64,000 nt of DNA from Gammaproteobacteria bacterium (GTDB lineage: Bacteria; Pseudomonadota; Gammaproteobacteria; Steroidobacterales; UBA11654), in contig JAQWSZ010000004.1 of assembly GCA_029242945.1 (NCBI GenBank), positions 8,671-72,670 of the forward strand. Reading direction: 5' to 3'. Below are positions 49,975 to 60,981 of the stretch, one piece after another. The translations under genes and the position numbers were made by a program. The notes beneath the pieces were generated by a model. That model did no database searches and was not told the origin of the DNA. It saw nothing but the letters and a program-made list of their open reading frames with translations. Position 1 is the stretch's first letter. Each line of letters opens with the position of its first letter.

Positions 49975-51209
49975 AAATTTTAAAAACGTATCTGTTTTTC
50001 TTATTGTGCACACCTTTGTATGCAGAGAACCAAGAGATAATTTTGATTAAGAATGCCACGATTATGACTGCAATGGAGGCAGGGATACTCGAAGATACTG
50101 ATCTTCTTATTAATAATGGCTTAATAGCAGAAGTAGGACAAAATCTTGAATACAATGGAGCGTTTGTTATTGATGCATCCAATCATTTTATAACACCAGG
50201 CTTGATAGCACCACAGAGTATGATTGGCATTCAAGAAATAGAGCTTGAGACTGAAACAAGAGATGATTCAAGTCATTACTTCTCTTCTGGATTCAGTATT
50301 ATTGATGCTTTTAACCCTTCTTCTGCTTTGATTCCATATAACAGAACAGGGGGCATCACTACTGCTATTGTCTCTCCATCTTCTGGTAATCATATTTTTT
50401 CAGGAATGGCTTCAGCTTTTAAACTTGATGGGAAATTAACAGAAGAAGCAATTGGTGAGAATGTGGCTATGATTATGAGTTTCGGAGGCAGTGAGGACTC
50501 AAGAGCCTCAAAGATGTTAATGCTAAAAGACTCAATTATAAAAGCTAAAAATTATCATAAATCAAGATCACAAATAATGAGAGGAGGCTATTTTGATTTT
50601 GGTAATTATACGCCGAGAGACTTAGAAGCAATATTAAGGCTTATTGGTAGAGAAATTCCTTTAATTATTAGAGTCAATAGGGCGAGAGATATGTTAAGGA
50701 TGATTCGATTCTCTAATGAAAATAAAATTGAGATTATTTTTTCAGGAGCAAAAGAAGCTTGGCGAATTGCTGACAAAATTGCAATTGAATCAATACCAGT
50801 AATCTTAGATCCTATGGATAATATCCCTAGTTCCTTTGATTCCATAGCTGCTAGGATGGACAATGCCGTGATACTTAATAATGCAGGCGTTAAATTACTG
50901 ATTACATCTCAAGTCACTCATAATTCTTATCTTAGTAGGCAAGGTGCTGGTAATGCTGTTGCTTATGGGCTTCCAGAACACGAAGCATTAAAAGCATTAA
51001 CTATAAATGTGGCTACTGTATTCGGACTATCTGAGTCAATTGGTTCTATAGAGGTTGGAAAAGATGCTGATATTTTAATTTGGAATGGTCATCCTTTAGA
51101 AGTTTCCTCATTTACAAAAGAAATATATATTGATGGGAAAAACATTGATACCCTCACTAGATCTCAGATGCTGAGAGATCGTTATCTTAAAAGACTGGGT
51201 TTGGATTAG
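49971..51209 (+). CDS. Secreted amidohydrolase-superfamily paralogue
   Basis: 412 aa. Signal peptide. C-terminal GSIEVGKDADILIWNGHP. The N-terminal metal block is degenerate (no HxH seen). ATGA overlap with the upstream paralogue. Confidence 0.75.
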   Translation: MKILKTYLFFLLCTPLYAENQEIILIKNATIMTAMEAGILEDTDLLINNGLIAEVGQNLEYNGAFVIDASNHFITPGLIAPQSMIGIQEIELETETRDDSSHYFSSGFSIIDAFNPSSALIPYNRTGGITTAIVSPSSGNHIFSGMASAFKLDGKLTEEAIGENVAMIMSFGGSEDSRASKMLMLKDSIIKAKNYHKSRSQIMRGGYFDFGNYTPRDLEAILRLIGREIPLIIRVNRARDMLRMIRFSNENKIEIIFSGAKEAWRIADKIAIESIPVILDPMDNIPSSFDSIAARMDNAVILNNAGVKLLITSQVTHNSYLSRQGAGNAVAYGLPEHEALKALTINVATVFGLSESIGSIEVGKDADILIWNGHPLEVSSFTKEIYIDGKNIDTLTRSQMLRDRYLKRLGLD

Positions 51210-52978
51210 TTAAAGTTTTCTCTATCATTAATGGTTTGGTCCATTAGATTCATATACTCAGAAACATCACTAGGCTTGGTCATTGTATTAATATCTAAAT
51301 TATAGTTTGAGTTTGATAAACTCTCAATTCCAAGACTGGATTTTGATGCAAAGACTTCTCCATTGTTTCTATCTAATGAAACCTTATCAACCAATAAAAT
51401 AATCTCATTTAGTTCAAGATCATTCAATAAAAGGTATTGATCTATTGAAAAAGGGTCTTTTGCAATAGGTTGCTGAGTAATTTCTTCATCACTCACTTCA
51501 ATTAGCTCTAGATAATCTGAATAATTTCTAGATTCAGAAGAATTGATAGTGGCGTCCTTAACCCAAGCTAAATATATTCTAGGTTCATTTTCTGAATCAC
51601 CAGTTATTTTATCTTTATAAAGATCTATGCCAAGTCCAATATCAAAACTGCCCAGTCCAATATCAAACCAATATAAATCAAACTGATAGCCCAGATCAAA
51701 ATTAACATAGTCTGTTCTATTGCCTCTTAGTTGATAAGCAGCAGTAGATCCTTTATTTAGTTGACCAATAGATAAGCTTGATTTGAATAATTGAGAATTC
51801 TCACCAATTAAAATGCCTCCCATTGAGAGAAGAAGTGAATCACCATCTATACTATGACCAATATTCATTCCCTCATATCTATAGCCCTCTTGATAGAAAG
51901 GATTTTGATATGCACAACCATTATTCAACGAGTTATTTTTATAAAAAGCACAAGTGGTTGAGGCCAACTCCGTGAATATACGATATCCTTCAAGATTTTT
52001 AAAGTCTTCGATTGAGCCCCAAGTTTCAAAACCAAAAAGACCCATAGAATCTTTCAATGACTCGCCCATTATTTGACCATATATAGCAAAAGGAAGATCT
52101 CTCAATTGGTGAGAAGACCTAAAGTCAAAACCTAGTAATGTATAGGATGAGTCTTCATTATATAGACTTGATGTTATGCATAGCTCATTACATATTATTT
52201 TTTTCCCGTTATCGATAGAAGTTCCAACTAGACCAATTTCTAAATTATCTAATGGTCTGGTTCCAACTCTCATACCATAGAAATTTCTTGAGTTTTCTAT
52301 TTCACTAATCAATAAAGAGAGATCCCATGGTCCTATCCAATTCAAAATTCCTGACTCTATAGGATCTGAAAAATTTCTTTCAATGGAGAGGCCAGTTAAT
52401 GGCCGGGCATTAGTTGATAGTGCCAAACTTCCATTCCAGCCTGGCCCCCACCAATTCTTTTTAGATCCTAATGAAAATGAATAATTACCTTTAGCAACAG
52501 ATATGTATGATTCATCCATAGTTGACATACCATTTGTTTTATCAACTTTGAGATTGACTGCAATATTTTTAGAAAAATAAGAAGCATTAGCTGCGATGTA
52601 TTTACTATTAGTAATTACATTATCAAATGATGTTATTCGCTTTGGATTTTTTGAGATTTGTATTTCTGTTGCTCCAAATACACCTAATTCTTGTGCGTTC
52701 ATCAAGGATTCTCGAATACGATTATAAGATGCCAATTCAATTAAAGACATCTCAGATTCACTTTTGGATAAATTGTAGGCTATATCACCCCAAGATAATG
52801 GCCATGTTGTGATTGGAATATTTAATACTCCAGAATCAACCAAGAGATGAATATCATGTCTAATCAATAGATCATCAGGGTTTGACCATGGCTCAGCCTT
52901 GATAGAGTATGAATTAATCATTAAAGCAAAAGCTAAATTTGCTACAAAGATATTCTTAAATATGATTCTGTTTTTCAT
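51206..52978 (-). CDS. Wzi-like (capsule-assembly family) outer-membrane beta-barrel protein with an acidic C-terminal extension
   Basis: 590 aa. Signal peptide. The N-terminal block PDDLLIRHDIHLLVDSGVLNIPITTWPLSWGDIAYNL resembles the Wzi helical bundle, followed by beta-strand-like alternation. Confidence 0.5.
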   Translation of the reverse strand: MKNRIIFKNIFVANLAFALMINSYSIKAEPWSNPDDLLIRHDIHLLVDSGVLNIPITTWPLSWGDIAYNLSKSESEMSLIELASYNRIRESLMNAQELGVFGATEIQISKNPKRITSFDNVITNSKYIAANASYFSKNIAVNLKVDKTNGMSTMDESYISVAKGNYSFSLGSKKNWWGPGWNGSLALSTNARPLTGLSIERNFSDPIESGILNWIGPWDLSLLISEIENSRNFYGMRVGTRPLDNLEIGLVGTSIDNGKKIICNELCITSSLYNEDSSYTLLGFDFRSSHQLRDLPFAIYGQIMGESLKDSMGLFGFETWGSIEDFKNLEGYRIFTELASTTCAFYKNNSLNNGCAYQNPFYQEGYRYEGMNIGHSIDGDSLLLSMGGILIGENSQLFKSSLSIGQLNKGSTAAYQLRGNRTDYVNFDLGYQFDLYWFDIGLGSFDIGLGIDLYKDKITGDSENEPRIYLAWVKDATINSSESRNYSDYLELIEVSDEEITQQPIAKDPFSIDQYLLLNDLELNEIILLVDKVSLDRNNGEVFASKSSLGIESLSNSNYNLDINTMTKPSDVSEYMNLMDQTINDRENFN

Positions 52979-53070: not shown

Positions 53071-54930
53071 ATGAAAATCAGAAATAAATTAATCTTTTTT
53101 ACACTCGCTATTACCTTTGTGAGTTCTTGTAGTATTTTTTTAGAGAAAACTGCAGTTGATCCTAATACCATAAGAATGACACAATCGGGAAGTGTTATTG
53201 GTCTTGATAATGGCAAAACATATCAGTGGTTAGGTATTCAGTATGGGAGTATTCCTAATGCTAATTTTAGATGGAAAAAAGCTAAACAACCCACCCCTTG
53301 GGAAGGCATAAAAGAAGCTATTAAATTTGGTGATTTTTGCACTCAAAAAGCTTCATTGATTAATTCCAGCGTAGGCCTATGGAACAACACTGTTGGCTCA
53401 GAAGATTGTCTTAATTTGAATATCTGGACCCCCAAAACATTCAAGGATGAGGTTGATAATATTTCAAAATATCCCGTGATGGTATGGATACACGGGGGAA
53501 GTAATATGTCAGGAAATTCTGATTTCTATAATCCTACGCAATTGGTTCAAAGTCATGATGTTATTGTGGTGACCATTAATTATAGATTAGGGCCTTTTGG
53601 GTGGTTTAATCATCCTAGTATCAATCAATTTTCAAATGAAATTAATTCTTCAGGTAATTATGGCAATCTCGATACCATTCAAGCGTTAGAATGGATACAA
53701 AATAATATTAGTAATTTTGGTGGTGATAAGAATAATGTCACAATTTTTGGAGAGTCAGCGGGCGGCTATAATGTTGCAGCTTTACTTGCATCACCAATAG
53801 CAGTAGGCCTATTCCATAAAGCCATTATACAAAGTGGAGGCATTAAGCCTGGAGACATTGATCATGCACAAAGTTATTTATCCAACCCTATACCCTGGAA
53901 GAATTACACCTCAAGGGAGCTTTTTAATCATCTGTTAATCATTAAAAATATGGCTGCAGAAAGAGAGGAAGCTTTACAAGTTCAATTGAAAATGGATGAT
54001 CAAGTTATTAATGACATTTTAAGATCTGCCACAACAGATGAGATTTATAAAGCCTATATGGATTCGAAAATTAACACCAATGAGATGCTAAGGCCATTTC
54101 CTGATGGTAATGTTTTAAATGAGAAAGGGATCATTGAATCTATGAAAAGTGGATATTCTGCAAGAATTCCTGTTATTTTTGGAACAAATAGGGATGAAAA
54201 TAAACTTTTCCTAATAGAAAATGAAAGACTCACTAGAAGTATTTTTGGATTGCCATTCATTAAGGATATCGAAGTTTACAATTCAGTTTCAAAACATCGT
54301 TCTAATACTTGGAAATTATTAGCGGTTGATAATCCAGCTAGGCTCTTAGTAAATTCTGGTAAGGAGTCTGTTTTTGCATATCGCTTTGATTGGGATGAAG
54401 AACCAAAAAAATATGGCCTTGATTTATCAGATTTGCTTGGAGCAGCACATGCATTTGAGATTCCATTTGTTATGGGAGATTTTGAAATGGATACATTATC
54501 AGATTATATGGTGAGCAGAAAGAATAAAAAATCAATGAAGCAATTGTCAGATTCAATGATGAGTTATTGGGCTGAATTTGCATACAATGGTGATCCTGGA
54601 AATGGTAGAAGCAATGACCTGCCTGTTTGGAACTCATGGTCGGAAATAAACGAGCAATCACCAAGATACATCATTTTTGATTCATATAGAGACCGTGGTA
54701 TTAGAATGTCATCTAAGAATCTTACCAAGGAATCTTTATTTCTTCAGATAGCAGAAGATGAAAATCTTAATGATAAGTATAAATGCGAAATGGTTGATAT
54801 TGCTATTCAATACGATGACTTGGAAAACCCAGAATATTTATATGAATTCGATGAAGGGCTTTGCAAAGACTTTAATCCAGACATAGAATGGAGACAATAT
54901 TGGTATGAAGAAATGGATGAACCATGGTAA
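53071..54930 (+). CDS. Type-B carboxylesterase/lipase, probable lipoprotein
   Basis: EDCLNLNIWTP, FGESAGG nucleophile elbow. The ATG at 53071 gives MKIRNKLIFFTLAITFVSSC, a lipobox-like signal; I prefer it over TTG 53047. Confidence 0.85.
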   Translation: MKIRNKLIFFTLAITFVSSCSIFLEKTAVDPNTIRMTQSGSVIGLDNGKTYQWLGIQYGSIPNANFRWKKAKQPTPWEGIKEAIKFGDFCTQKASLINSSVGLWNNTVGSEDCLNLNIWTPKTFKDEVDNISKYPVMVWIHGGSNMSGNSDFYNPTQLVQSHDVIVVTINYRLGPFGWFNHPSINQFSNEINSSGNYGNLDTIQALEWIQNNISNFGGDKNNVTIFGESAGGYNVAALLASPIAVGLFHKAIIQSGGIKPGDIDHAQSYLSNPIPWKNYTSRELFNHLLIIKNMAAEREEALQVQLKMDDQVINDILRSATTDEIYKAYMDSKINTNEMLRPFPDGNVLNEKGIIESMKSGYSARIPVIFGTNRDENKLFLIENERLTRSIFGLPFIKDIEVYNSVSKHRSNTWKLLAVDNPARLLVNSGKESVFAYRFDWDEEPKKYGLDLSDLLGAAHAFEIPFVMGDFEMDTLSDYMVSRKNKKSMKQLSDSMMSYWAEFAYNGDPGNGRSNDLPVWNSWSEINEQSPRYIIFDSYRDRGIRMSSKNLTKESLFLQIAEDENLNDKYKCEMVDIAIQYDDLENPEYLYEFDEGLCKDFNPDIEWRQYWYEEMDEPW

Positions 54931-55388
54931 AGAATATACAATACTGGCTAATGAAATCTGAACCAGATACTTATAGTATTGATGACTTAGAGTCATTTGG
55001 TATTGATCACTGGGATGGCATTAGAAATTATCAAGTTAGGAATTTCTTCAGGGATAAGATGCAAATCAAAGATAAAGCTTTCTTTTATCACTCAAATTGC
55101 AAAGAACCTGGCATCGTTGGTTTGATGGAGATAGCCAGTAATGCCTACCCAGATCATACGGCTTTCATTAAAGGAGAAAAGTACTTCGATTCAAAAAGTG
55201 ATCCAGAGAAACCAAGATGGTTAATGGTTGATGTTAAGTATCAAAGACATTTAAAAAGAAAGATTACACTCAGTGATCTTAGAAATCAGAAATCTTTAGA
55301 ATCAATGCGACTTCTGCAACGAGGAAATAGACTATCAGTAATTCCATTGGAAAAAAAAGAATGGGATTATATTATTGAAATGGAGTAG
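54924..55388 (+). CDS. EVE (PUA-like) domain protein
   Basis: 154 aa. YWLMKSEPDTYSIDDL...WDGIRNYQVRNF... is typical of EVE. The ATG overlaps the esterase stop (ATGGTAA). Confidence 0.85.
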   Translation: MVKNIQYWLMKSEPDTYSIDDLESFGIDHWDGIRNYQVRNFFRDKMQIKDKAFFYHSNCKEPGIVGLMEIASNAYPDHTAFIKGEKYFDSKSDPEKPRWLMVDVKYQRHLKRKITLSDLRNQKSLESMRLLQRGNRLSVIPLEKKEWDYIIEME

Positions 55389-55395
55389 CCAAGCC

Positions 55396-55824
55396 ATGAT
55401 TATCAGGAATAAAAACTATCTTTTAGTAATCTTAGCGATCTTATTTTCTAGCATTGCATTTGATATTGTTGCTGATGACTATAAACGTGGTGAAGTTTCT
55501 ATTACTAGTCCATTGGATGGTGAAATTGTCAGCCAAACCTTCAGAGTTGTGTTTGATATCAAGAATTTTGATTTATCTCCTGCAGGTACCTTTGATGAGA
55601 ATACAGGACATCATCATTTAATTATTGATGCAGCATTACCAAATTTAAATTCTCCAATTCCAAGTAGTGCTAATTATCTACATTTTGGCAAAGCCCAGGA
55701 GTATGCAGATATTACGTTAGCTCCAGGTAAGCATACCCTACAGCTATTATTGGGCGATGGAAATCATATTCCTCACAAAAAACCCATATTTTCAAAACCA
55801 ATTGAAATTAAAGTCAAACCCTAG
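55396..55824 (+). CDS. Secreted DUF4399-domain protein
   Basis: Signal peptide from the Met at 55396. The GHHHLIID block is characteristic of DUF4399. Confidence 0.6.
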   Translation: MIIRNKNYLLVILAILFSSIAFDIVADDYKRGEVSITSPLDGEIVSQTFRVVFDIKNFDLSPAGTFDENTGHHHLIIDAALPNLNSPIPSSANYLHFGKAQEYADITLAPGKHTLQLLLGDGNHIPHKKPIFSKPIEIKVKP

Positions 55825-56735: not shown

Positions 56736-57305
56736 ATGATGAAAAAAAGAATAATTATAGGTATATCAGGAGCGAGTGGCGTTATTTATGGAATACGTTT
56801 GCTTCAGGTATTGAAAGATGATCTAGAAATTGAAACGCATTTAGTTTTGACTAAAGGTGGAAAACTTAATATTACGCTTGAAACTGATTTTGATATTAAA
56901 TCAATTGAGGCTATGGCAGATGTAGTTCATAGCGACAAAAATCTAGGCGCCAGTATTGCTAGCGGTTCATTTCAAACATTGGGGATGATTATTGCACCAT
57001 GTTCGATGAAAACACTATCTGGCATAGTTAATTCATATGCCACAAATTTAATTGTAAGAGCCTCTGACGTTATTTTAAAGGAAAGCAGACAACTTATTAT
57101 AGTACCAAGAGAAACGCCTCTGCATACAGGGCATTGTGAATTACTATATAAAGCTTCAGTGATGGGTGCTCATATTGTTCCACCAAATCCTGCTTTTTAT
57201 AATAATCCTGAATCTTTAGACGACATTATTAATCACACAGTGGGGAGAGTTTTAGATTTGATGGGTCTAGATAATGATATTGTTTCTCGATGGGATGGTG
57301 TTTAA
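56736..57305 (+). CDS. ubiX: UbiX-family flavin prenyltransferase (prFMN synthase)
   Basis: 189 aa. IIIGISGASGVIYGIRLL, IAPCSMKTLSGI, PRETPLH blocks. Confidence 0.9.
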   Translation: MMKKRIIIGISGASGVIYGIRLLQVLKDDLEIETHLVLTKGGKLNITLETDFDIKSIEAMADVVHSDKNLGASIASGSFQTLGMIIAPCSMKTLSGIVNSYATNLIVRASDVILKESRQLIIVPRETPLHTGHCELLYKASVMGAHIVPPNPAFYNNPESLDDIINHTVGRVLDLMGLDNDIVSRWDGV

Positions 57306-57312
57306 TTCGAGA

Positions 57313-57831
57313 ATGGATGGTAGCACTTCAGTTGATGATTTACTCACCAAAGTTAAATTATTATTAACTTCACATAATACAATCTCTATTGCTTCAACCC
57401 AGGAAAAGAAAGTATCAGCGGCAAGTGTTTTCTATGTATCCGATACCAATCTAAATATTTATTTTCTTTCTTTTGATAAAAGTACCCACTCAAAAAATAT
57501 TTTTAAAAATAGAAATATAGCCGCTACCATCAATAAGGATGTTGAGGATTGGTCAGATATTAAAGGGCTTCAAATTAAGGGATATTCAGAGAAGCTAGAT
57601 ATACATCAAAGAGAAGAAGTACTTAATAGATACAAAAGAAAGTTCAAATACTTGGATCAAATTATAAACGCACCTAAAAATAGTAATGAACAAAAAATAG
57701 CAGAACAATTCCAAACAATCAGTGTTTTTGTTTTCACTCCAATCTTTCTTAGGTTAATTGATAATTCTCTAGGGTTTGGAAAAAAGATGGAGTTAACACG
57801 TGCAAATGGAGAATGGTTAAGAACCAGTTGA
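57313..57831 (+). CDS. Pyridoxamine-5'-phosphate-oxidase-like split-barrel flavoprotein
   Basis: Starts 7 nt after the ubiX stop (MDGSTSVDDLL...). The pattern ...TISIAST...VSAASVFYV.D.NLNIYFLS...S.HSKNI..N.NIAATI....D...IKGLQIKG is typical of the PNPOx/GSP26 family. Confidence 0.55.
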   Translation: MDGSTSVDDLLTKVKLLLTSHNTISIASTQEKKVSAASVFYVSDTNLNIYFLSFDKSTHSKNIFKNRNIAATINKDVEDWSDIKGLQIKGYSEKLDIHQREEVLNRYKRKFKYLDQIINAPKNSNEQKIAEQFQTISVFVFTPIFLRLIDNSLGFGKKMELTRANGEWLRTS

Positions 57832-57847
57832 CGATAAACTAAGTCAA

Positions 57848-58633
57848 TTACTCTCCACTGGAGTAAGCGGGTAATGTTCCTAGATGAACTCCACTATCCA
57901 TAATAAGAACCTCACCTGTTATTAGTTTTGCACCTTCAAGAAACCAAATTAAGGTTTCCGCAACATCCTCAGCAGTTGCTACCTCTTGTAGAGGTAGTTT
58001 TTTTCTTGACCCTTCAAGCATATTCTCATAATTCTCTTTGCTCATACCATCTTTGAGCCAACGAGTTTGAATCATTCCTGGAGCAACACTGTTAATACGA
58101 ATCTCAGGGCCAAGAATATGAGCTAATGATTTCGTCATCATATTTAATGCAGCTTTTGATGAAGCATAAGCAATGGATGAACCTATACCTGTAACACCAG
58201 CAAGAGACGAATCATTCACGATTGCGCCTTTTCCTACTTTTCTCATATGAGGTTCTACAGCTCTTACCATTTGATAGGCTCCCACTACATTTACGGCATA
58301 AATGTCCAGAAAGTCATCTTTAGTCAGTCCATCTAGATTTGAAAAGGCATTGAATTTTGTTTTGCCAGCATTATTAATCAAATAATCAATTCTTCCCCAT
58401 TTATCGACTGCAGCCTTAGCCATAGATTGACAATCATCATCATTGGATACATCACCTTGACATACCAAAACTTCAACTCCTTGTTGTTCAGCTAGTAAGG
58501 CAGTTTCTTTTGCTTCTTTTTCACTTCGAGTGTAATTAATAACAACATTACATCCTTTTTTGGCTAGTAAAATTGCAGCAGCAGAACCTACTCCTGTTGC
58601 TGATCCAGTGACTATTGCTACTTTTCCTTTCAT
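57848..58633 (-). CDS. Short-chain dehydrogenase/reductase (FabG-like)
   Basis: 261 aa. TGSATGVGSAAA cofactor motif, NNAG, catalytic S...YASSK. Confidence 0.9.
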   Translation of the reverse strand: MKGKVAIVTGSATGVGSAAAILLAKKGCNVVINYTRSEKEAKETALLAEQQGVEVLVCQGDVSNDDDCQSMAKAAVDKWGRIDYLINNAGKTKFNAFSNLDGLTKDDFLDIYAVNVVGAYQMVRAVEPHMRKVGKGAIVNDSSLAGVTGIGSSIAYASSKAALNMMTKSLAHILGPEIRINSVAPGMIQTRWLKDGMSKENYENMLEGSRKKLPLQEVATAEDVAETLIWFLEGAKLITGEVLIMDSGVHLGTLPAYSSGE

Positions 58634-58802
58634 TTGGATTCCTGATTTAAATAAGATTGTTAGTTATTTTATAGATTACTGGAAATAAAATCTTAATTTT
58701 GATGACTGATTTTCAGTATTAGATTTAATACAGCATAAACAATTACTCATAAATGTATTAAGATACTTCTAATTTAGTGTAGTTTTTTTAGAGGAGACAA
58801 CA

Positions 58803-60299
58803 ATGGTTTTTAATGACATGAGAGATTACATCCAGCACTTAAGAGATCGAGAGCAGCTGATAGATGTGAATACTGAATTGAATGTGGCTAGGGAAACTAC
58901 TGAACTGCAGCCATTGATGAGACATTTGCATAATATTAATGGCCCAGCACTTATGCTAAATAATTTGTCTGGGTATAATACTAATGATATCCCTGTTTTA
59001 TTTAACCCCTATGGTACGAGAGAAAGAACTTCTATGATTCTGGGGGAAGAGGGTGCGTTTGACGGGAAAGTTAAACATGCGAGCGTTCTGACTAATCCGT
59101 CCAGTTGGCTTAAACCAAATTGTATTGATTCATCATCAGCTTCCTGTAAAGATGTTAAAATTGAGAAAAAAGACATCAATATTGGTAAGCAAATCCCTCA
59201 TGTATGGTTTGGGAAAGAAGGACCTTCTTATATTACCAATGCCATCGTCATTACTAAAGATCCAGAAACTGGTATCCCAAATACAGGATGTTACCGATTA
59301 ACACAATTGTGGAATGCATCGCATCCAAATGGTGAAGTTTATTCTGAAGAAGAGCAGAGACAATGCCTTTCTATTTTTGCTTTCTGGAACCCACCTGGAA
59401 ACCATATCGGCTTACATTGGGCTAAAGCGCAAGAAATGAATAAACCACTAGAGGTTGCTATAGCTTGCGTTGTCGATCCTGTCATACAATTGGCCAGTGC
59501 CACTGGCATACCTTTCGGCTTAGATGAAATGGATTTTGCAGGTGGTTTGAGAGGCAAACCTGTTGATGTTGTTAAATGTGAAACTGTTGATATTGAAGTC
59601 CCAGCCACTGCAGAATGGGTTCTTGAGGGTAAATTTCTTCCCAATAGAGATGTTACAATAGGTCCTCATTCCAATCCTGTTGGTTATTATGATGATGCTC
59701 AGTTATTTCCTTTGATTGAATTGGATTGCATTACACACAGAAAGGATCCTATATGGTATGCCACAATGGAAATGGAACCTCCATTTGATCATAATTACAT
59801 GGCTTGCCTTCCCATGGAAGGAGAACTATTGAGTGATTTACAATCTAAGATACCAGAAGTTAAAGATGTTGTTGTTACTCCAAATCTTAGTTATTTTATA
59901 CAACTGTCTGTGGATGGGCCTCAAAAACCTCATCCAGAATTTGGTAAGCATGTGCTCCATGCTGTCTGGGGAGCTAGCGGTAGATGGGGTAGAACAGCAA
60001 AAGTGATAGTTGTTGTTGGCCCTGACGTTAATCCCTATGATCTATCAGAAATTGAATGGGCTATTCAGACAAGAGTTCAACCAATTACTGATACTATAAT
60101 GAATAAATCAGGACAAGCATTCTTGATGGATCCATCGGCACCAAAGGATCCAGGCCATGGAATTGCACTTCAGTCTGAGCAGATTGGTATCGATGCTACG
60201 ATAAAAGTTTTTGAGCGTTTTACCTCTTACCCAGAGTACAGTAATGCAAAACCTGAGGATGTTGCTCTTATTGCAGAGAAGTTAAAAGATATTTTTTAG
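58803..60299 (+). CDS. UbiD-family (prFMN-dependent) decarboxylase homologue, atypical active-site motif
   Basis: 498 aa. MRDYIQHL...N-terminus, NTGCYRLTQ (G.YR), DEMDFAGGLRGKPVDVVKCETVDIEVPATAEWVLEG, then IGPHSNPVGYY in place of the usual EGPFGE/DxxGYY. SD agaggaga upstream. Confidence 0.9.
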   Translation: MVFNDMRDYIQHLRDREQLIDVNTELNVARETTELQPLMRHLHNINGPALMLNNLSGYNTNDIPVLFNPYGTRERTSMILGEEGAFDGKVKHASVLTNPSSWLKPNCIDSSSASCKDVKIEKKDINIGKQIPHVWFGKEGPSYITNAIVITKDPETGIPNTGCYRLTQLWNASHPNGEVYSEEEQRQCLSIFAFWNPPGNHIGLHWAKAQEMNKPLEVAIACVVDPVIQLASATGIPFGLDEMDFAGGLRGKPVDVVKCETVDIEVPATAEWVLEGKFLPNRDVTIGPHSNPVGYYDDAQLFPLIELDCITHRKDPIWYATMEMEPPFDHNYMACLPMEGELLSDLQSKIPEVKDVVVTPNLSYFIQLSVDGPQKPHPEFGKHVLHAVWGASGRWGRTAKVIVVVGPDVNPYDLSEIEWAIQTRVQPITDTIMNKSGQAFLMDPSAPKDPGHGIALQSEQIGIDATIKVFERFTSYPEYSNAKPEDVALIAEKLKDIF

Positions 60300-60326: not shown

Positions 60327-60355
60327 AAAAAAAGGCCCAATATTTGGGCCTTTTT
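60327..60355. terminator. Bidirectional rho-independent terminator between convergent genes
   Basis: AAAAAAA-GGCCCAA-TAT-TTGGGCC-TTTTT. A-tract and T-tract flank a 7-bp GC-rich stem. Confidence 0.85.
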
Positions 60356-60375: not shown

Positions 60376-60981
60376 TTACATAAAGAAACCATGACCAGCA
60401 CCAACCATACTCATTAACATGGGTATTGATAGCATAGTGTTAGTTCTTGAAGCTAGAAATGCTATTCTAGCACCTTTGGCTTTTTCCTCTGGCGTTGCTT
60501 CAACAATACCAAGAACTTTCTTTTGATTAGGCCAAATGAGAATCCACACATTAAATAACATAATAGTTCCCATCCAAGCACCTATACCAATCGTAGTAGC
60601 ATAAGGATTACCGGTTCTCATACCCAATTCAAAGGCATCTCCTAAGTTACCATTATGTAATAAGAAAGCCGCACCTGAAATCCAGGTTAATAGAGCTGCC
60701 CAACGGAACCATAGCAATGCTCTTGGGGCTACATATTTTGATATTGCCGCTGGACCTGGTCCACCTTCATCTGCATTTGCTTCAGCTACAGATGGAACTT
60801 GAACAAAATTAAAATAGTAAAGCAACCCTATCCAAGCAACACCAGCTAAAACATGGATCCAAATGATTAATGAATTTGCAGCATTAGCACCTGAAAGATC
60901 AGTTCCTTGTGCTATCAAAACAGCAATGACAACTCCTGAAATAATTGTCCCTGTTATTTTATCTAATAGTTTCATTTTCAT
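60376..60981 (-). CDS. Integral membrane protein resembling the membrane domain of PuuD-type urate hydroxylases (no cytochrome c domain)
   Basis: 201 aa, about 5 TM. The block HVLAGVAWIGLLYYFNFVQVP is what I associate with that family. Assignment from memory only. Confidence 0.45.
   Translation of the reverse strand: MKMKLLDKITGTIISGVVIAVLIAQGTDLSGANAANSLIIWIHVLAGVAWIGLLYYFNFVQVPSVAEANADEGGPGPAAISKYVAPRALLWFRWAALLTWISGAAFLLHNGNLGDAFELGMRTGNPYATTIGIGAWMGTIMLFNVWILIWPNQKKVLGIVEATPEEKAKGARIAFLASRTNTMLSIPMLMSMVGAGHGFFM

Follow-up and report, generated by a model that had tools for sequence, protein, structure and literature searches.

The UbiD-family gene and its family placement

The stretch of DNA considered here (hereafter the window) comprises 64,000 nucleotides of a Gammaproteobacteria bacterium (GenBank assembly GCA_029242945.1, contig JAQWSZ010000004.1, positions 8,671 to 72,670). 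The gene in question is a UbiD-family gene at 58803..60299 on the forward strand, a 498-amino acid (aa) open reading frame (ORF) whose product belongs to a clade with the motif I-G-x-H-S-N...GYYD and carries Ile and Asn where both catalytic acids of the family would be expected. All three UbiD domains of Pfam (PF20695/PF01977/PF20696) were matched above cutoff (UbiD 163.8, UbiD_C 77.2 and UbiD_N 38.4 bits), as was the NCBIfam model TIGR00148 (273.7 bits against a cutoff of 244.85). An AlphaFold2 (AF2) model of the protein (mean predicted local distance difference test, pLDDT, 81.4; predicted template modelling score, pTM, 0.84) was matched by Foldseek with a probability of 1.00 and TM scores of 0.72–0.77 to VdcC, HmfF, Escherichia coli UbiD, AroY, HudA and Fdc1, with VdcC ranked on top and none of the structures clearly favoured.

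The named functional subfamilies were matched below their curated cutoffs. The UbiD equivalog NF008175 (4-hydroxy-3-polyprenylbenzoate decarboxylase) scored 156.1 bits against a cutoff of 788, the VdcC model NF041204, second-best of the NCBIfam models, 221.8 bits against 650, and the menaquinone (futalosine-pathway) decarboxylase mena_SCO4490 (TIGR03701) 193.5 bits against 495.9. For the alpha and beta subunits of phenylphosphate carboxylase the scores were 77.3 bits (TIGR02723, cutoff 564.6) and 109.3 bits (TIGR02724, cutoff 468.95), and the comparison with this enzyme made in the preliminary description does not extend to membership. By these scores the window protein is placed in the UbiD family and outside every named functional subfamily, and the automated names attached to it (polyprenyl-hydroxybenzoate, menaquinone biosynthesis or furandicarboxylate decarboxylase) have no backing from curated cutoffs. 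VdcC/BsdC, subunit C of a hydroxyarylic acid decarboxylase (7ae4) and the top Foldseek match, resembles the window protein in its use of accessory proteins, though its partner is the small VdcD subunit and not a PNPOx-fold protein and an oxidoreductase as at the window locus, and it retains the catalytic Glu (E278; PMC8379154). Longer homologues (523–616 aa), screened for fused Rosetta-stone partners, contain UbiD domains only, and a 101-aa TTG-start ORF on the reverse strand inside the gene (59339..59644) is an antisense shadow ORF with no independent support.

Replacement of the acid loop

The codons at 59658..59675 (+), ata ggt cct cat tcc aat, encode I286-G287-P288-H289-S290-N291 in place of the canonical acid loop E-G-P-F/Y-G-E/D. 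The preliminary description had placed Ile and Asn at both catalytic-acid positions from an alignment made by hand, and HMMER alignments to solved structures recover the same register. Single-sequence alignments to HmfF (6h6x) and to E. coli UbiD (2idb) run without a gap through VPAxAExVxEG...xGPxxx..GYY, so that VPATAEWVLEGKFLPNRDVTIGPHSNPVGYY of the window protein pairs with VPAGAEIVIEGKILPGVREVEGPFGEYPRYY of HmfF, and likewise with E. coli UbiD. A profile alignment built from 34 clade sequences gives the same loop register with maximal posterior, and the stretch from position 284 to 297 is ungapped in all 108 canonical representatives. An alignment shift as the cause of the Ile and Asn was rejected on these grounds. 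Both acids of the Glu-Arg-Glu/Asp network (E277/E282 in Fdc1) are thus absent, with I286 and N291 at those positions throughout the clade.

In the profile alignment I286 and N291 correspond to E285 and D290 of E. coli UbiD (EGPYGD), and N160, R165 and E242 to its N175, R180 and E241. E. coli UbiD (2idb, 5m1c-e) is the best match of the clade profile in the Protein Data Bank (PDB; 210 bits, TM ~0.74–0.77) and shares with the window protein the three-domain architecture and fold, the Asn, Arg and Glu just named and the GYY motif; unlike it, the window protein has Ile for E285 (I286), His for Y288 (H289), Ser for G289 (S290) and Asn for D290 (N291), carries an insertion of ~18 aa after the Arg and stands beside SDR (short-chain dehydrogenase/reductase), PNPOx-like and UbiX genes, with an identity of ~25%. 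HmfF, the 2,5-furandicarboxylate decarboxylase of Pelotomaculum thermopropionicum (6h6v/6h6x), is the best single-sequence PDB match (164 bits), but it has Glu at both acid positions (EGPFGE against IGPHSN) and lacks the insertion, and its structural alignment to the window protein has ~26% identity. In hmf clusters the hmfF gene likewise occurs together with a gene of UbiX type. The ferulic acid decarboxylase Fdc1 of Aspergillus niger (4za4) shares the fold (TM 0.74) and the equivalent of R173, while its E277 and E282 are Ile and Asn in the window protein, at ~20% identity.

Conservation, origin and distribution

Among 79 orthologous coding sequences drawn from reference-genome loci, position 286 is Ile in 78, and H289, S290, N291 and D297 are invariant. 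The codons behind these residues have turned over freely at synonymous sites, with CAT and CAC for H289 in a ratio of 44:35, AAT and AAC for N291 at 41:38, GAC and GAT for D297 at 57:22, and all four of TCC, TCG, TCT and TCA in use for S290. Because the residues are invariant despite this turnover, the new loop is under strong purifying selection and not in decay, and the pattern goes far past what chance would produce.

The pattern [I/V/L]-G-[W/P/N]-H-S-N-x-x-G-Y-Y-D was present in all 120 of the closest database clusters (58–95% identity), and an exhaustive search of 1.84 billion representatives showed a sharp score gap beyond a handful of relatives. Those relatives, at 43–56% identity, are also non-canonical (e.g., D-G-P-H-G-N and N-W-G-H-S-H), and the canonical EGPFGE first appears at ~35% identity to the window protein. 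Whether homologues with the Ile/Asn pair form a clade had been posed as a check on the initial observation, and they do: the clade was monophyletic in 60 of 60 neighbour-joining bootstraps, nested in a wider His-x-Asn/His superclade recovered in 59 of 60, which places the change of the acid loop at a single origin in these trees.

Several side branches lie near this clade. One group of superclade members (P0122, P0346–P0351) carries a second type of loop, D-G-P-H-G-N, and some members have Lys in place of the metal-ligand Glu (E242K) and Asp at the His201 position. Two (P0125 and P0348) have lost the Arg (R165L), E242 and D297 as well. The side branches of the superclade therefore include remodelling of the metal site and probable true degeneration. 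Among the nearest representatives, other, unrelated UbiD lineages (P0128, P0130, P0136 and P0141) also lack EGPFGE (e.g., DGPPSS and PEGAEAV) and score below every named NCBIfam equivalog; non-canonical acid loops therefore exist beyond the Ile/Asn clade.

A scan of reference genomes returned 234 matching loci, all from uncultured Gammaproteobacteria with the labels Woeseiaceae, Chromatiales or 'Ca. Foliamicus', and the 80 that were listed are metagenome-assembled or single-amplified genomes throughout. Identical copies of the window protein occur on more than 100 assembled contigs, Tara Oceans samples among them, and the plasmid collection held no relative above 30% identity. This branch of the UbiD family is previously undescribed and known only from uncultured bacteria.

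Kept and remodelled positions

Outside the loop much of the canonical active site is in place, as the preliminary description had noted for the Arg motif, GYY and the DEMDFAGG block. The motif N160-T-G-C-Y-R165 (59280..59297, +), the counterpart by alignment of N175...R180 in E. coli UbiD, does not vary within the clade, and R165 is specified by six synonymous codons; among canonical representatives the same motif has Arg in 100% and Asn in 89%. The block D241-E242-M-D-F-A-G-G (59523..59546, +) keeps the metal/phosphate-ligand Glu, with N160 and E242 invariant in 79/79 sequences and H201 present in 73 (Asp or Gln elsewhere), and G294-Y-Y is likewise retained. In Fdc1 the ligands of the cofactor phosphate and metal are N168, H191 and E233. 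By alignment, the Arg and the Mn/K/phosphate-ligand positions of the family are present in the window protein.

Canonical UbiD proteins share 57 positions with a conservation of 80% or more, and the clade retains 46 of them, including N160, R165, H201, E242, K400 and the GYY motif. The other 11 have switched, and five of these fall within the six-residue loop (Fisher p=6e-4), although membership of the canonical set had itself been decided by acids at 286 and 291, and the independent evidence in this test is limited to positions 288–290. The switches outside the loop are D139E, G223x (100% Gly in canonical proteins and variable in the clade), D406G, F52L and K460Q. Superclade-wide traits comprise E139, G406 and an insertion of ~18 residues, located within residues 166–200 (59298..59402, +) between the Arg and the metal-binding His. 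This segment spans 35 residues in the superclade against a median of 17 (range 15–32) in the 108 canonical representatives, shows the conservation pattern WN..HP.G..Y....Q...Ls.FafWNPP and breaks the HMMER alignments to PDB UbiD structures. The matching segment of Fdc1 supplies residues of the substrate pocket, and the insertion indicates a different or rebuilt pocket in the window protein. The acid loop is only one part of a wider remodelling, together with the ~18-aa insertion, D139E, G223x, D406G and K460Q.

The preliminary description had also named acids that might stand in for the missing pair, the Asp of NRDVT and the two Asp residues after GYY. The first (D283; Q/D/E/T across the clade) and the last (D298; K/D/A) are not conserved and were rejected. 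The remaining candidate, D297 (codon at 59691..59693, +), is Asp in 79/79 clade sequences; among the 108 canonical representatives the position is Gly or Ser in 73 and Asp in four, and Asn stands there in P0125 and P0348, the two superclade members without R165 and E242. D297 cannot take the backbone position of E282. In the AF2 model, DSSP assigns two-residue bridges at 289–290 and 296–297 around a five-residue turn, and if these two bridges pair, H289 and D297 would be cross-strand neighbours and D297 a candidate partner for the His. The acid may therefore have been relocated to D297 rather than lost.

These observations bear on the suggestion that the protein is a non-catalytic paralogue, i.e., a cofactor carrier or a regulatory or structural subunit. 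Such a pseudoenzyme would fit the disappearance of both acids of an essential network and the inactivity of the E282Q and E277Q variants of Fdc1 (PMC5818171), and the additional loss of R165 and E242 in P0125 and P0348 demonstrates that degeneration does occur in the lineage. The replacement residues of the clade are nonetheless invariant in the face of synonymous turnover, which is unexpected at a relaxed site; the Arg and the cofactor/metal ligands are kept and a new invariant acid (D297) has been gained, and no gene for a catalytic UbiD partner lies nearby in 96 loci. We consider a pseudoenzyme improbable.

The linked cassette and neighbouring genes

Three genes upstream of the UbiD-like gene recur with it. 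The first (56736..57305, +) encodes UbiX, the flavin prenyltransferase that makes prenylated flavin mononucleotide (prFMN), with scores of 255 against 188 bits for NF004685 and 225 against 109 bits for TIGR00421. The second (57313..57831, +) encodes a small protein with a YhbP/PNPOx fold, identified through a weak match to the YhbP family and homologues with PNPOx_N. Its ORF can be called from 57274, but the homologues begin at the Met at 57313, and the earlier start probably overcalls the gene by 13 codons, overlapping UbiX. The window copy has diverged beyond the reach of Pfam and is 35% identical to a protein annotated as PNPOx_N at another locus (L002); 26 of 27 family members match Pfam PNPOx_N, and a profile of the family matches the split-barrel structures of general stress protein 26 and Rv2991. 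The third gene (57848..58633, −), divergent from the UbiD-like gene, encodes a classical SDR oxidoreductase (Pfam adh_short/adh_short_C2) with TGxxxGxG, NNAG and YxxxK motifs, whose PDB relatives are generic (best match 'putative SDR' 5iz4) and give no hint of a substrate.

Across 60 loci with at least 4 kb of upstream sequence, the SDR gene was linked to the UbiD-like gene in 53, UbiX (counted within 8 kb upstream) in 48 and the PNPOx-like gene in 38, and the SDR is ~70% identical between loci, compared with ~62% for the UbiD-like protein. PNPOx-like genes at L089 (1120–1638) and L092 (9344–9841) likewise lie immediately before a superclade member of 43% identity and a clade paralogue of 60% identity, respectively, each in another context, which suggests that the PNPOx-like protein works with this UbiD branch, physically or functionally, and not with UbiX. 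Genes inserted between those of the cassette (IS110, major facilitator superfamily (MFS) transporter, acyl-CoA ligase, NMO and hydrolases) differ by lineage and are not core. Two clusters of seemingly conserved small upstream ORFs (up167 and m170) were discarded as antisense shadows of the SDR and UbiX/PNPOx-like genes. No second, canonical UbiD gene occurs in the window or in the flanks of 96 loci, a sample that does not cover whole genomes.

The linkage to UbiX is relevant to a further alternative, in which the window protein would be independent of prFMN and use only the fold and the metal site, as proposed for the subunits of phenylphosphate carboxylase. The alpha and beta subunits of that enzyme in Thauera aromatica have the UbiD fold, are reported to function without prFMN and set a precedent for non-canonical active sites. 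The absence of the canonical acids, the analogy drawn in the preliminary description and the other non-canonical lineages among the nearest representatives (P0128, P0130, P0136 and P0141) speak for this alternative. Unlike the phenylphosphate carboxylase genes, however, the window gene is UbiX-linked and has no ppc-type partner subunits nearby; its product scores far under both phenylphosphate carboxylase cutoffs, UbiX is adjacent in most loci, and the phosphate and metal ligands that hold prFMN are conserved together with the Arg. A prFMN-independent protein is thus very unlikely.

The intergenic region between the SDR and UbiD-like genes (58634..58802, 169 bp), delimited from the sequence and an alignment of 16 intergenic regions, has a Shine-Dalgarno sequence (GAGGAG) 8 nt ahead of the ATG of the UbiD-like gene. 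In the 16 close relatives a block at ~58664–58703 is conserved (TATT.TAT.G.TTA...AAATCTT...TTTAATTT, plus AGGAGA), with a short inverted repeat, AAATC-TTT-GATTT, in most of them, and it may represent a shared promoter or operator. Downstream, a strong bidirectional hairpin terminator (60329..60355) with a 12-bp stem and flanking A and T runs separates the UbiD-like gene from a convergent membrane-protein gene, and on account of this terminator the UbiD-like gene is predicted to be monocistronic in the window. The convergent gene (60376–60981, −) encodes a 201-aa membrane protein with a partial Urate_ox_N match, found at 19 related loci as well, and the loci with this neighbour include those of 'Foliamicus' type with a QPRT (nadC-like) gene downstream (16 loci). 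The sub-lineage of the window has the terminator and the Urate_ox_N-like gene together with genes for Grx4 and the E2 and E3 components of pyruvate dehydrogenase (PDH).

Other features of the window are less widely shared. The upstream genes at 54924–55824 and 51206–52978 are kept in the close lineage only, where the upstream set comprises genes for an EVE-domain protein, a DUF4399 protein, a Wzi-like capsule-assembly protein, a 619–627-aa carboxylesterase-like protein and two amidohydrolases. A SAM-I/IV riboswitch aptamer at 412–503 (+; RF01725, 63.8 bits against a gathering threshold of 41.1) was the sole Rfam match in the window.

Phosphonate genes and other contexts in relatives

An unbiased clustering of all ORFs in 80 of the 234 loci revealed a recurrent association with phosphonate biosynthesis. 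Among the 52 loci for which 6 kb or more of downstream sequence is available, 27 carry phosphonate-biosynthesis genes downstream on the same strand, or 28 when a locus missed by the automated filter (L011) is counted. The arrays (L011:9495–14094; L015–L023; L002–L004:9557–17497) are of two types. The first consists of a fusion of phosphoenolpyruvate (PEP) mutase, PepM, with a nucleotidyltransferase, a Ppd-like thiamine pyrophosphate enzyme, a class-V aminotransferase and a second nucleotidyltransferase; in the second, from loci labelled 'Chromatiales', this set is preceded by genes for an ApbA-like reductase, LeuC/LeuD-like proteins, a PEP-mutase/isocitrate lyase-family enzyme and a PhyH dioxygenase. 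At L011, which holds an 84%-identical orthologue, the ATG of PepM lies 5 nt past the stop codon of the UbiD-like gene, where the window has its terminator, and because of this spacing the two genes are predicted to be co-transcribed there. The association spans two of the three major subclades and is absent from the sub-lineage of the window, and no PepM, Ppd or LeuCD-like gene occurs across the 64-kb window; for this reason the phosphonate link is a lead and not a defining trait. Literature searches found nothing linking UbiD/UbiX with PEP mutase or combining UbiD/prFMN with sequence-similarity networks, and nothing relevant for UbiD, UbiX and SDR together.

Two genomes carry two clade paralogues each, P0083 with P0112 (L091 and L092) on one 149,277-bp contig and P0025 with P0369 on one 3,573,947-bp chromosome. 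The paralogues lie in islands with genes for GntR regulators, hydrolases, TonB receptors, MFS transporters, an OYE-type reductase and molybdenum (Mo)-hydroxylases. Islands of paralogues with the loop I-G-W-H-S-N also hold DUF1838, AFOR and a xanthine-dehydrogenase-type enzyme and are catabolic-looking.

These contexts, together with the scores given above, weigh on the reading suggested by the automated annotations, namely a housekeeping decarboxylase of the ubiquinone pathway, a divergent equivalent of E. coli UbiD acting on 3-polyprenyl-4-hydroxybenzoate. The linkage to UbiX, the housekeeping neighbours in the window (PDH E2/E3, Grx4 and methionyl-tRNA synthetase), the match of the clade profile to E. 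coli UbiD as the best in the PDB and the replacement of UbiD/UbiX in some lineages (PMC10626278) would all be compatible with such a role. The protein, however, reaches 156 bits against the 788-bit equivalog cutoff, and VdcC, HmfF and UbiD are about equally distant from it; the two genomes with paired paralogues in catabolic-looking islands, the SDR and PNPOx-like partners, which have no role in the known pathway, and the co-transcription with PEP mutase in close relatives also argue against it. We regard a ubiquinone-pathway function as improbable.

The same contexts provide soft hints at a substrate. Mo-hydroxylase genes occur near three superclade members, and genes for a kynurenine-formamidase-like cyclase and an aminotransferase adjoin one member. 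XCDC, the xanthine-8-carboxylate decarboxylase of Cupriavidus sp. LA-1, is a phylogenetically isolated UbiD-family enzyme, characterised only recently, which has an adjacent UbiX, acts on an N-heteroaromatic acid and is encoded beside Mo-hydroxylase genes (PMC12391406). Compared by description and not by sequence, it resembles the superclade in the recurrence of Mo-hydroxylases, whereas its cluster (lumazine dehydrogenase, isomerase) differs from the UbiX/PNPOx-like/SDR cassette. From the Mo-hydroxylases, the kynurenine-formamidase-like cyclase, the QPRT genes (16 loci), the LeuCD-like and PepM genes and the precedent of XCDC, the substrate could be an N-heteroaromatic or anionic unsaturated acid.

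Proposed function and mechanism

The reading we prefer, with a probability of about one half, is that the window protein is catalytically active as a (de)carboxylase that depends on prFMN and has its acid/base relocated and its pocket remodelled, and that it belongs to a distinct UbiD subfamily of single origin. The cofactor would be supplied by UbiX, with the PNPOx-fold protein and the NADP(H)-type SDR as accessory or pathway partners. The site for the cofactor phosphate and metal (N160/H201/E242) and the carboxylate/CO2-binding R165 are kept, while the Glu-Arg-Glu network has been replaced. Proton transfer, for which the Glu is no longer there, would fall to His289, with Asp297 probably polarising this His and Ser290 and Asn291 holding it in position. 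Loss of the two carboxylates would suit the pocket to a substrate other than polyprenyl-hydroxybenzoate, plausibly one that is more anionic or N-heteroaromatic, and an unsaturated or heteroaromatic acid would most likely still undergo reversible (de)carboxylation.

What is known of Fdc1 frames this proposal. Its Glu-Arg-Glu network is needed for catalysis, with only Glu-to-Asp swaps tolerated, and R173 binds the substrate carboxylate or CO2 (PMC5818171). The catalytic acid is E282, the E282Q variant nonetheless matures prFMN, and maturation is affected by R173 (PMC5818171, PMC6644310). Given the maturation in E282Q and the kept Arg and cofactor site, an enzyme without the Glu could plausibly hold mature prFMN and would need another proton donor. 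The residues that suggest themselves for this role are His289, which never varies in the clade, the newly acquired Asp297, Ser290 and Asn291. Of the three outcomes that the preliminary description had left side by side, a different acid/base arrangement or a different chemistry is favoured by the purifying selection, the single origin, the kept Arg and ligands and the presence of UbiX at 48 of 60 loci, and these argue against a non-catalytic paralogue.

It should be noted that several points weigh against this proposal. The E282Q and E277Q variants of Fdc1 are inactive (PMC5818171), and loss of both acids could abolish decarboxylase activity. Any placement of H289, N291 and D297 near prFMN is tentative, with pLDDT values of only 81 and 62 for the loop blocks of the AF2 model. 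Linkage to UbiX is not universal, and UbiX could serve a canonical UbiD elsewhere in the genome; none of the three partner genes (UbiX, PNPOx-like and SDR) lies within 10 kb of two superclade members with the type-2 loop. Finally, no cultured, characterised or annotated member of the clade was found in the databases and the genome loci listed.

With its Glu-free His/Asn/Asp site, an active prFMN enzyme could also use the azomethine-ylide/iminium cofactor for something other than decarboxylation, such as isomerisation, cycloaddition-type C-C chemistry or hydration, perhaps with redox coupling to the PNPOx-fold flavoprotein and the SDR. The remodelling takes in the entire acid loop and the pocket segment, well beyond one residue; the two redox-type partners that are linked to the gene (SDR at 53 and PNPOx-like at 38 of 60 loci) are not needed by canonical UbiD decarboxylases; and the canonical acid is described as essential to decarboxylation (PMC5818171, PMC6644310). 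R165, the counterpart of the Fdc1 residue that binds the substrate carboxylate or CO2, is nevertheless invariant, the characterised enzymes of the UbiD family are all (de)carboxylases, and none of the alternative reactions has positive support. We hold a non-decarboxylating function to be unlikely, while (de)carboxylation with a relocated acid/base remains the preferred reading and the protein probably performs UbiD-type chemistry in a new way.

A bolder version, and likewise an unlikely one, would make the whole His-x-Asn superclade a new class of prFMN enzymes that is independent of the Glu and has an obligate PNPOx-fold partner and an NADP-dependent SDR, acting, in the PepM/LeuCD-linked lineages, at an unrecognised step whose substrate would be an anionic unsaturated phosphonate or dicarboxylate. 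Oxidation of a C-N bond is the reaction of PNPOx enzymes, and the maturation of prFMNH2 to the iminium form is formally an oxidation of this kind. Under this version the PNPOx-fold protein could be a dedicated prFMN oxidase or maturase or a redox partner, and an anionic substrate would account for the removal of two active-site carboxylates.

Implications for the UbiD family

While the UbiD family itself is well known, what is new is a subfamily whose catalytic loop has been rebuilt and which has accessory genes of its own. The Glu-Arg-Glu/Asp network is regarded as defining and essential for UbiD/prFMN catalysis, and here a large subfamily swaps both acids for an equally conserved set of His, Ser and Asn/Asp while being monophyletic, under purifying selection, environmentally abundant and still linked to UbiX. 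Such a subfamily would constitute a natural experiment in which prFMN chemistry is run via a different proton relay, and its members form a pool of enzymes to which current annotation gives the wrong name, ubiquinone or furandicarboxylate decarboxylase. The PNPOx-fold and SDR partners, and the repeated same-strand adjacency to phosphonate operons, could each reveal new metabolism in uncultured marine and sediment Gammaproteobacteria.

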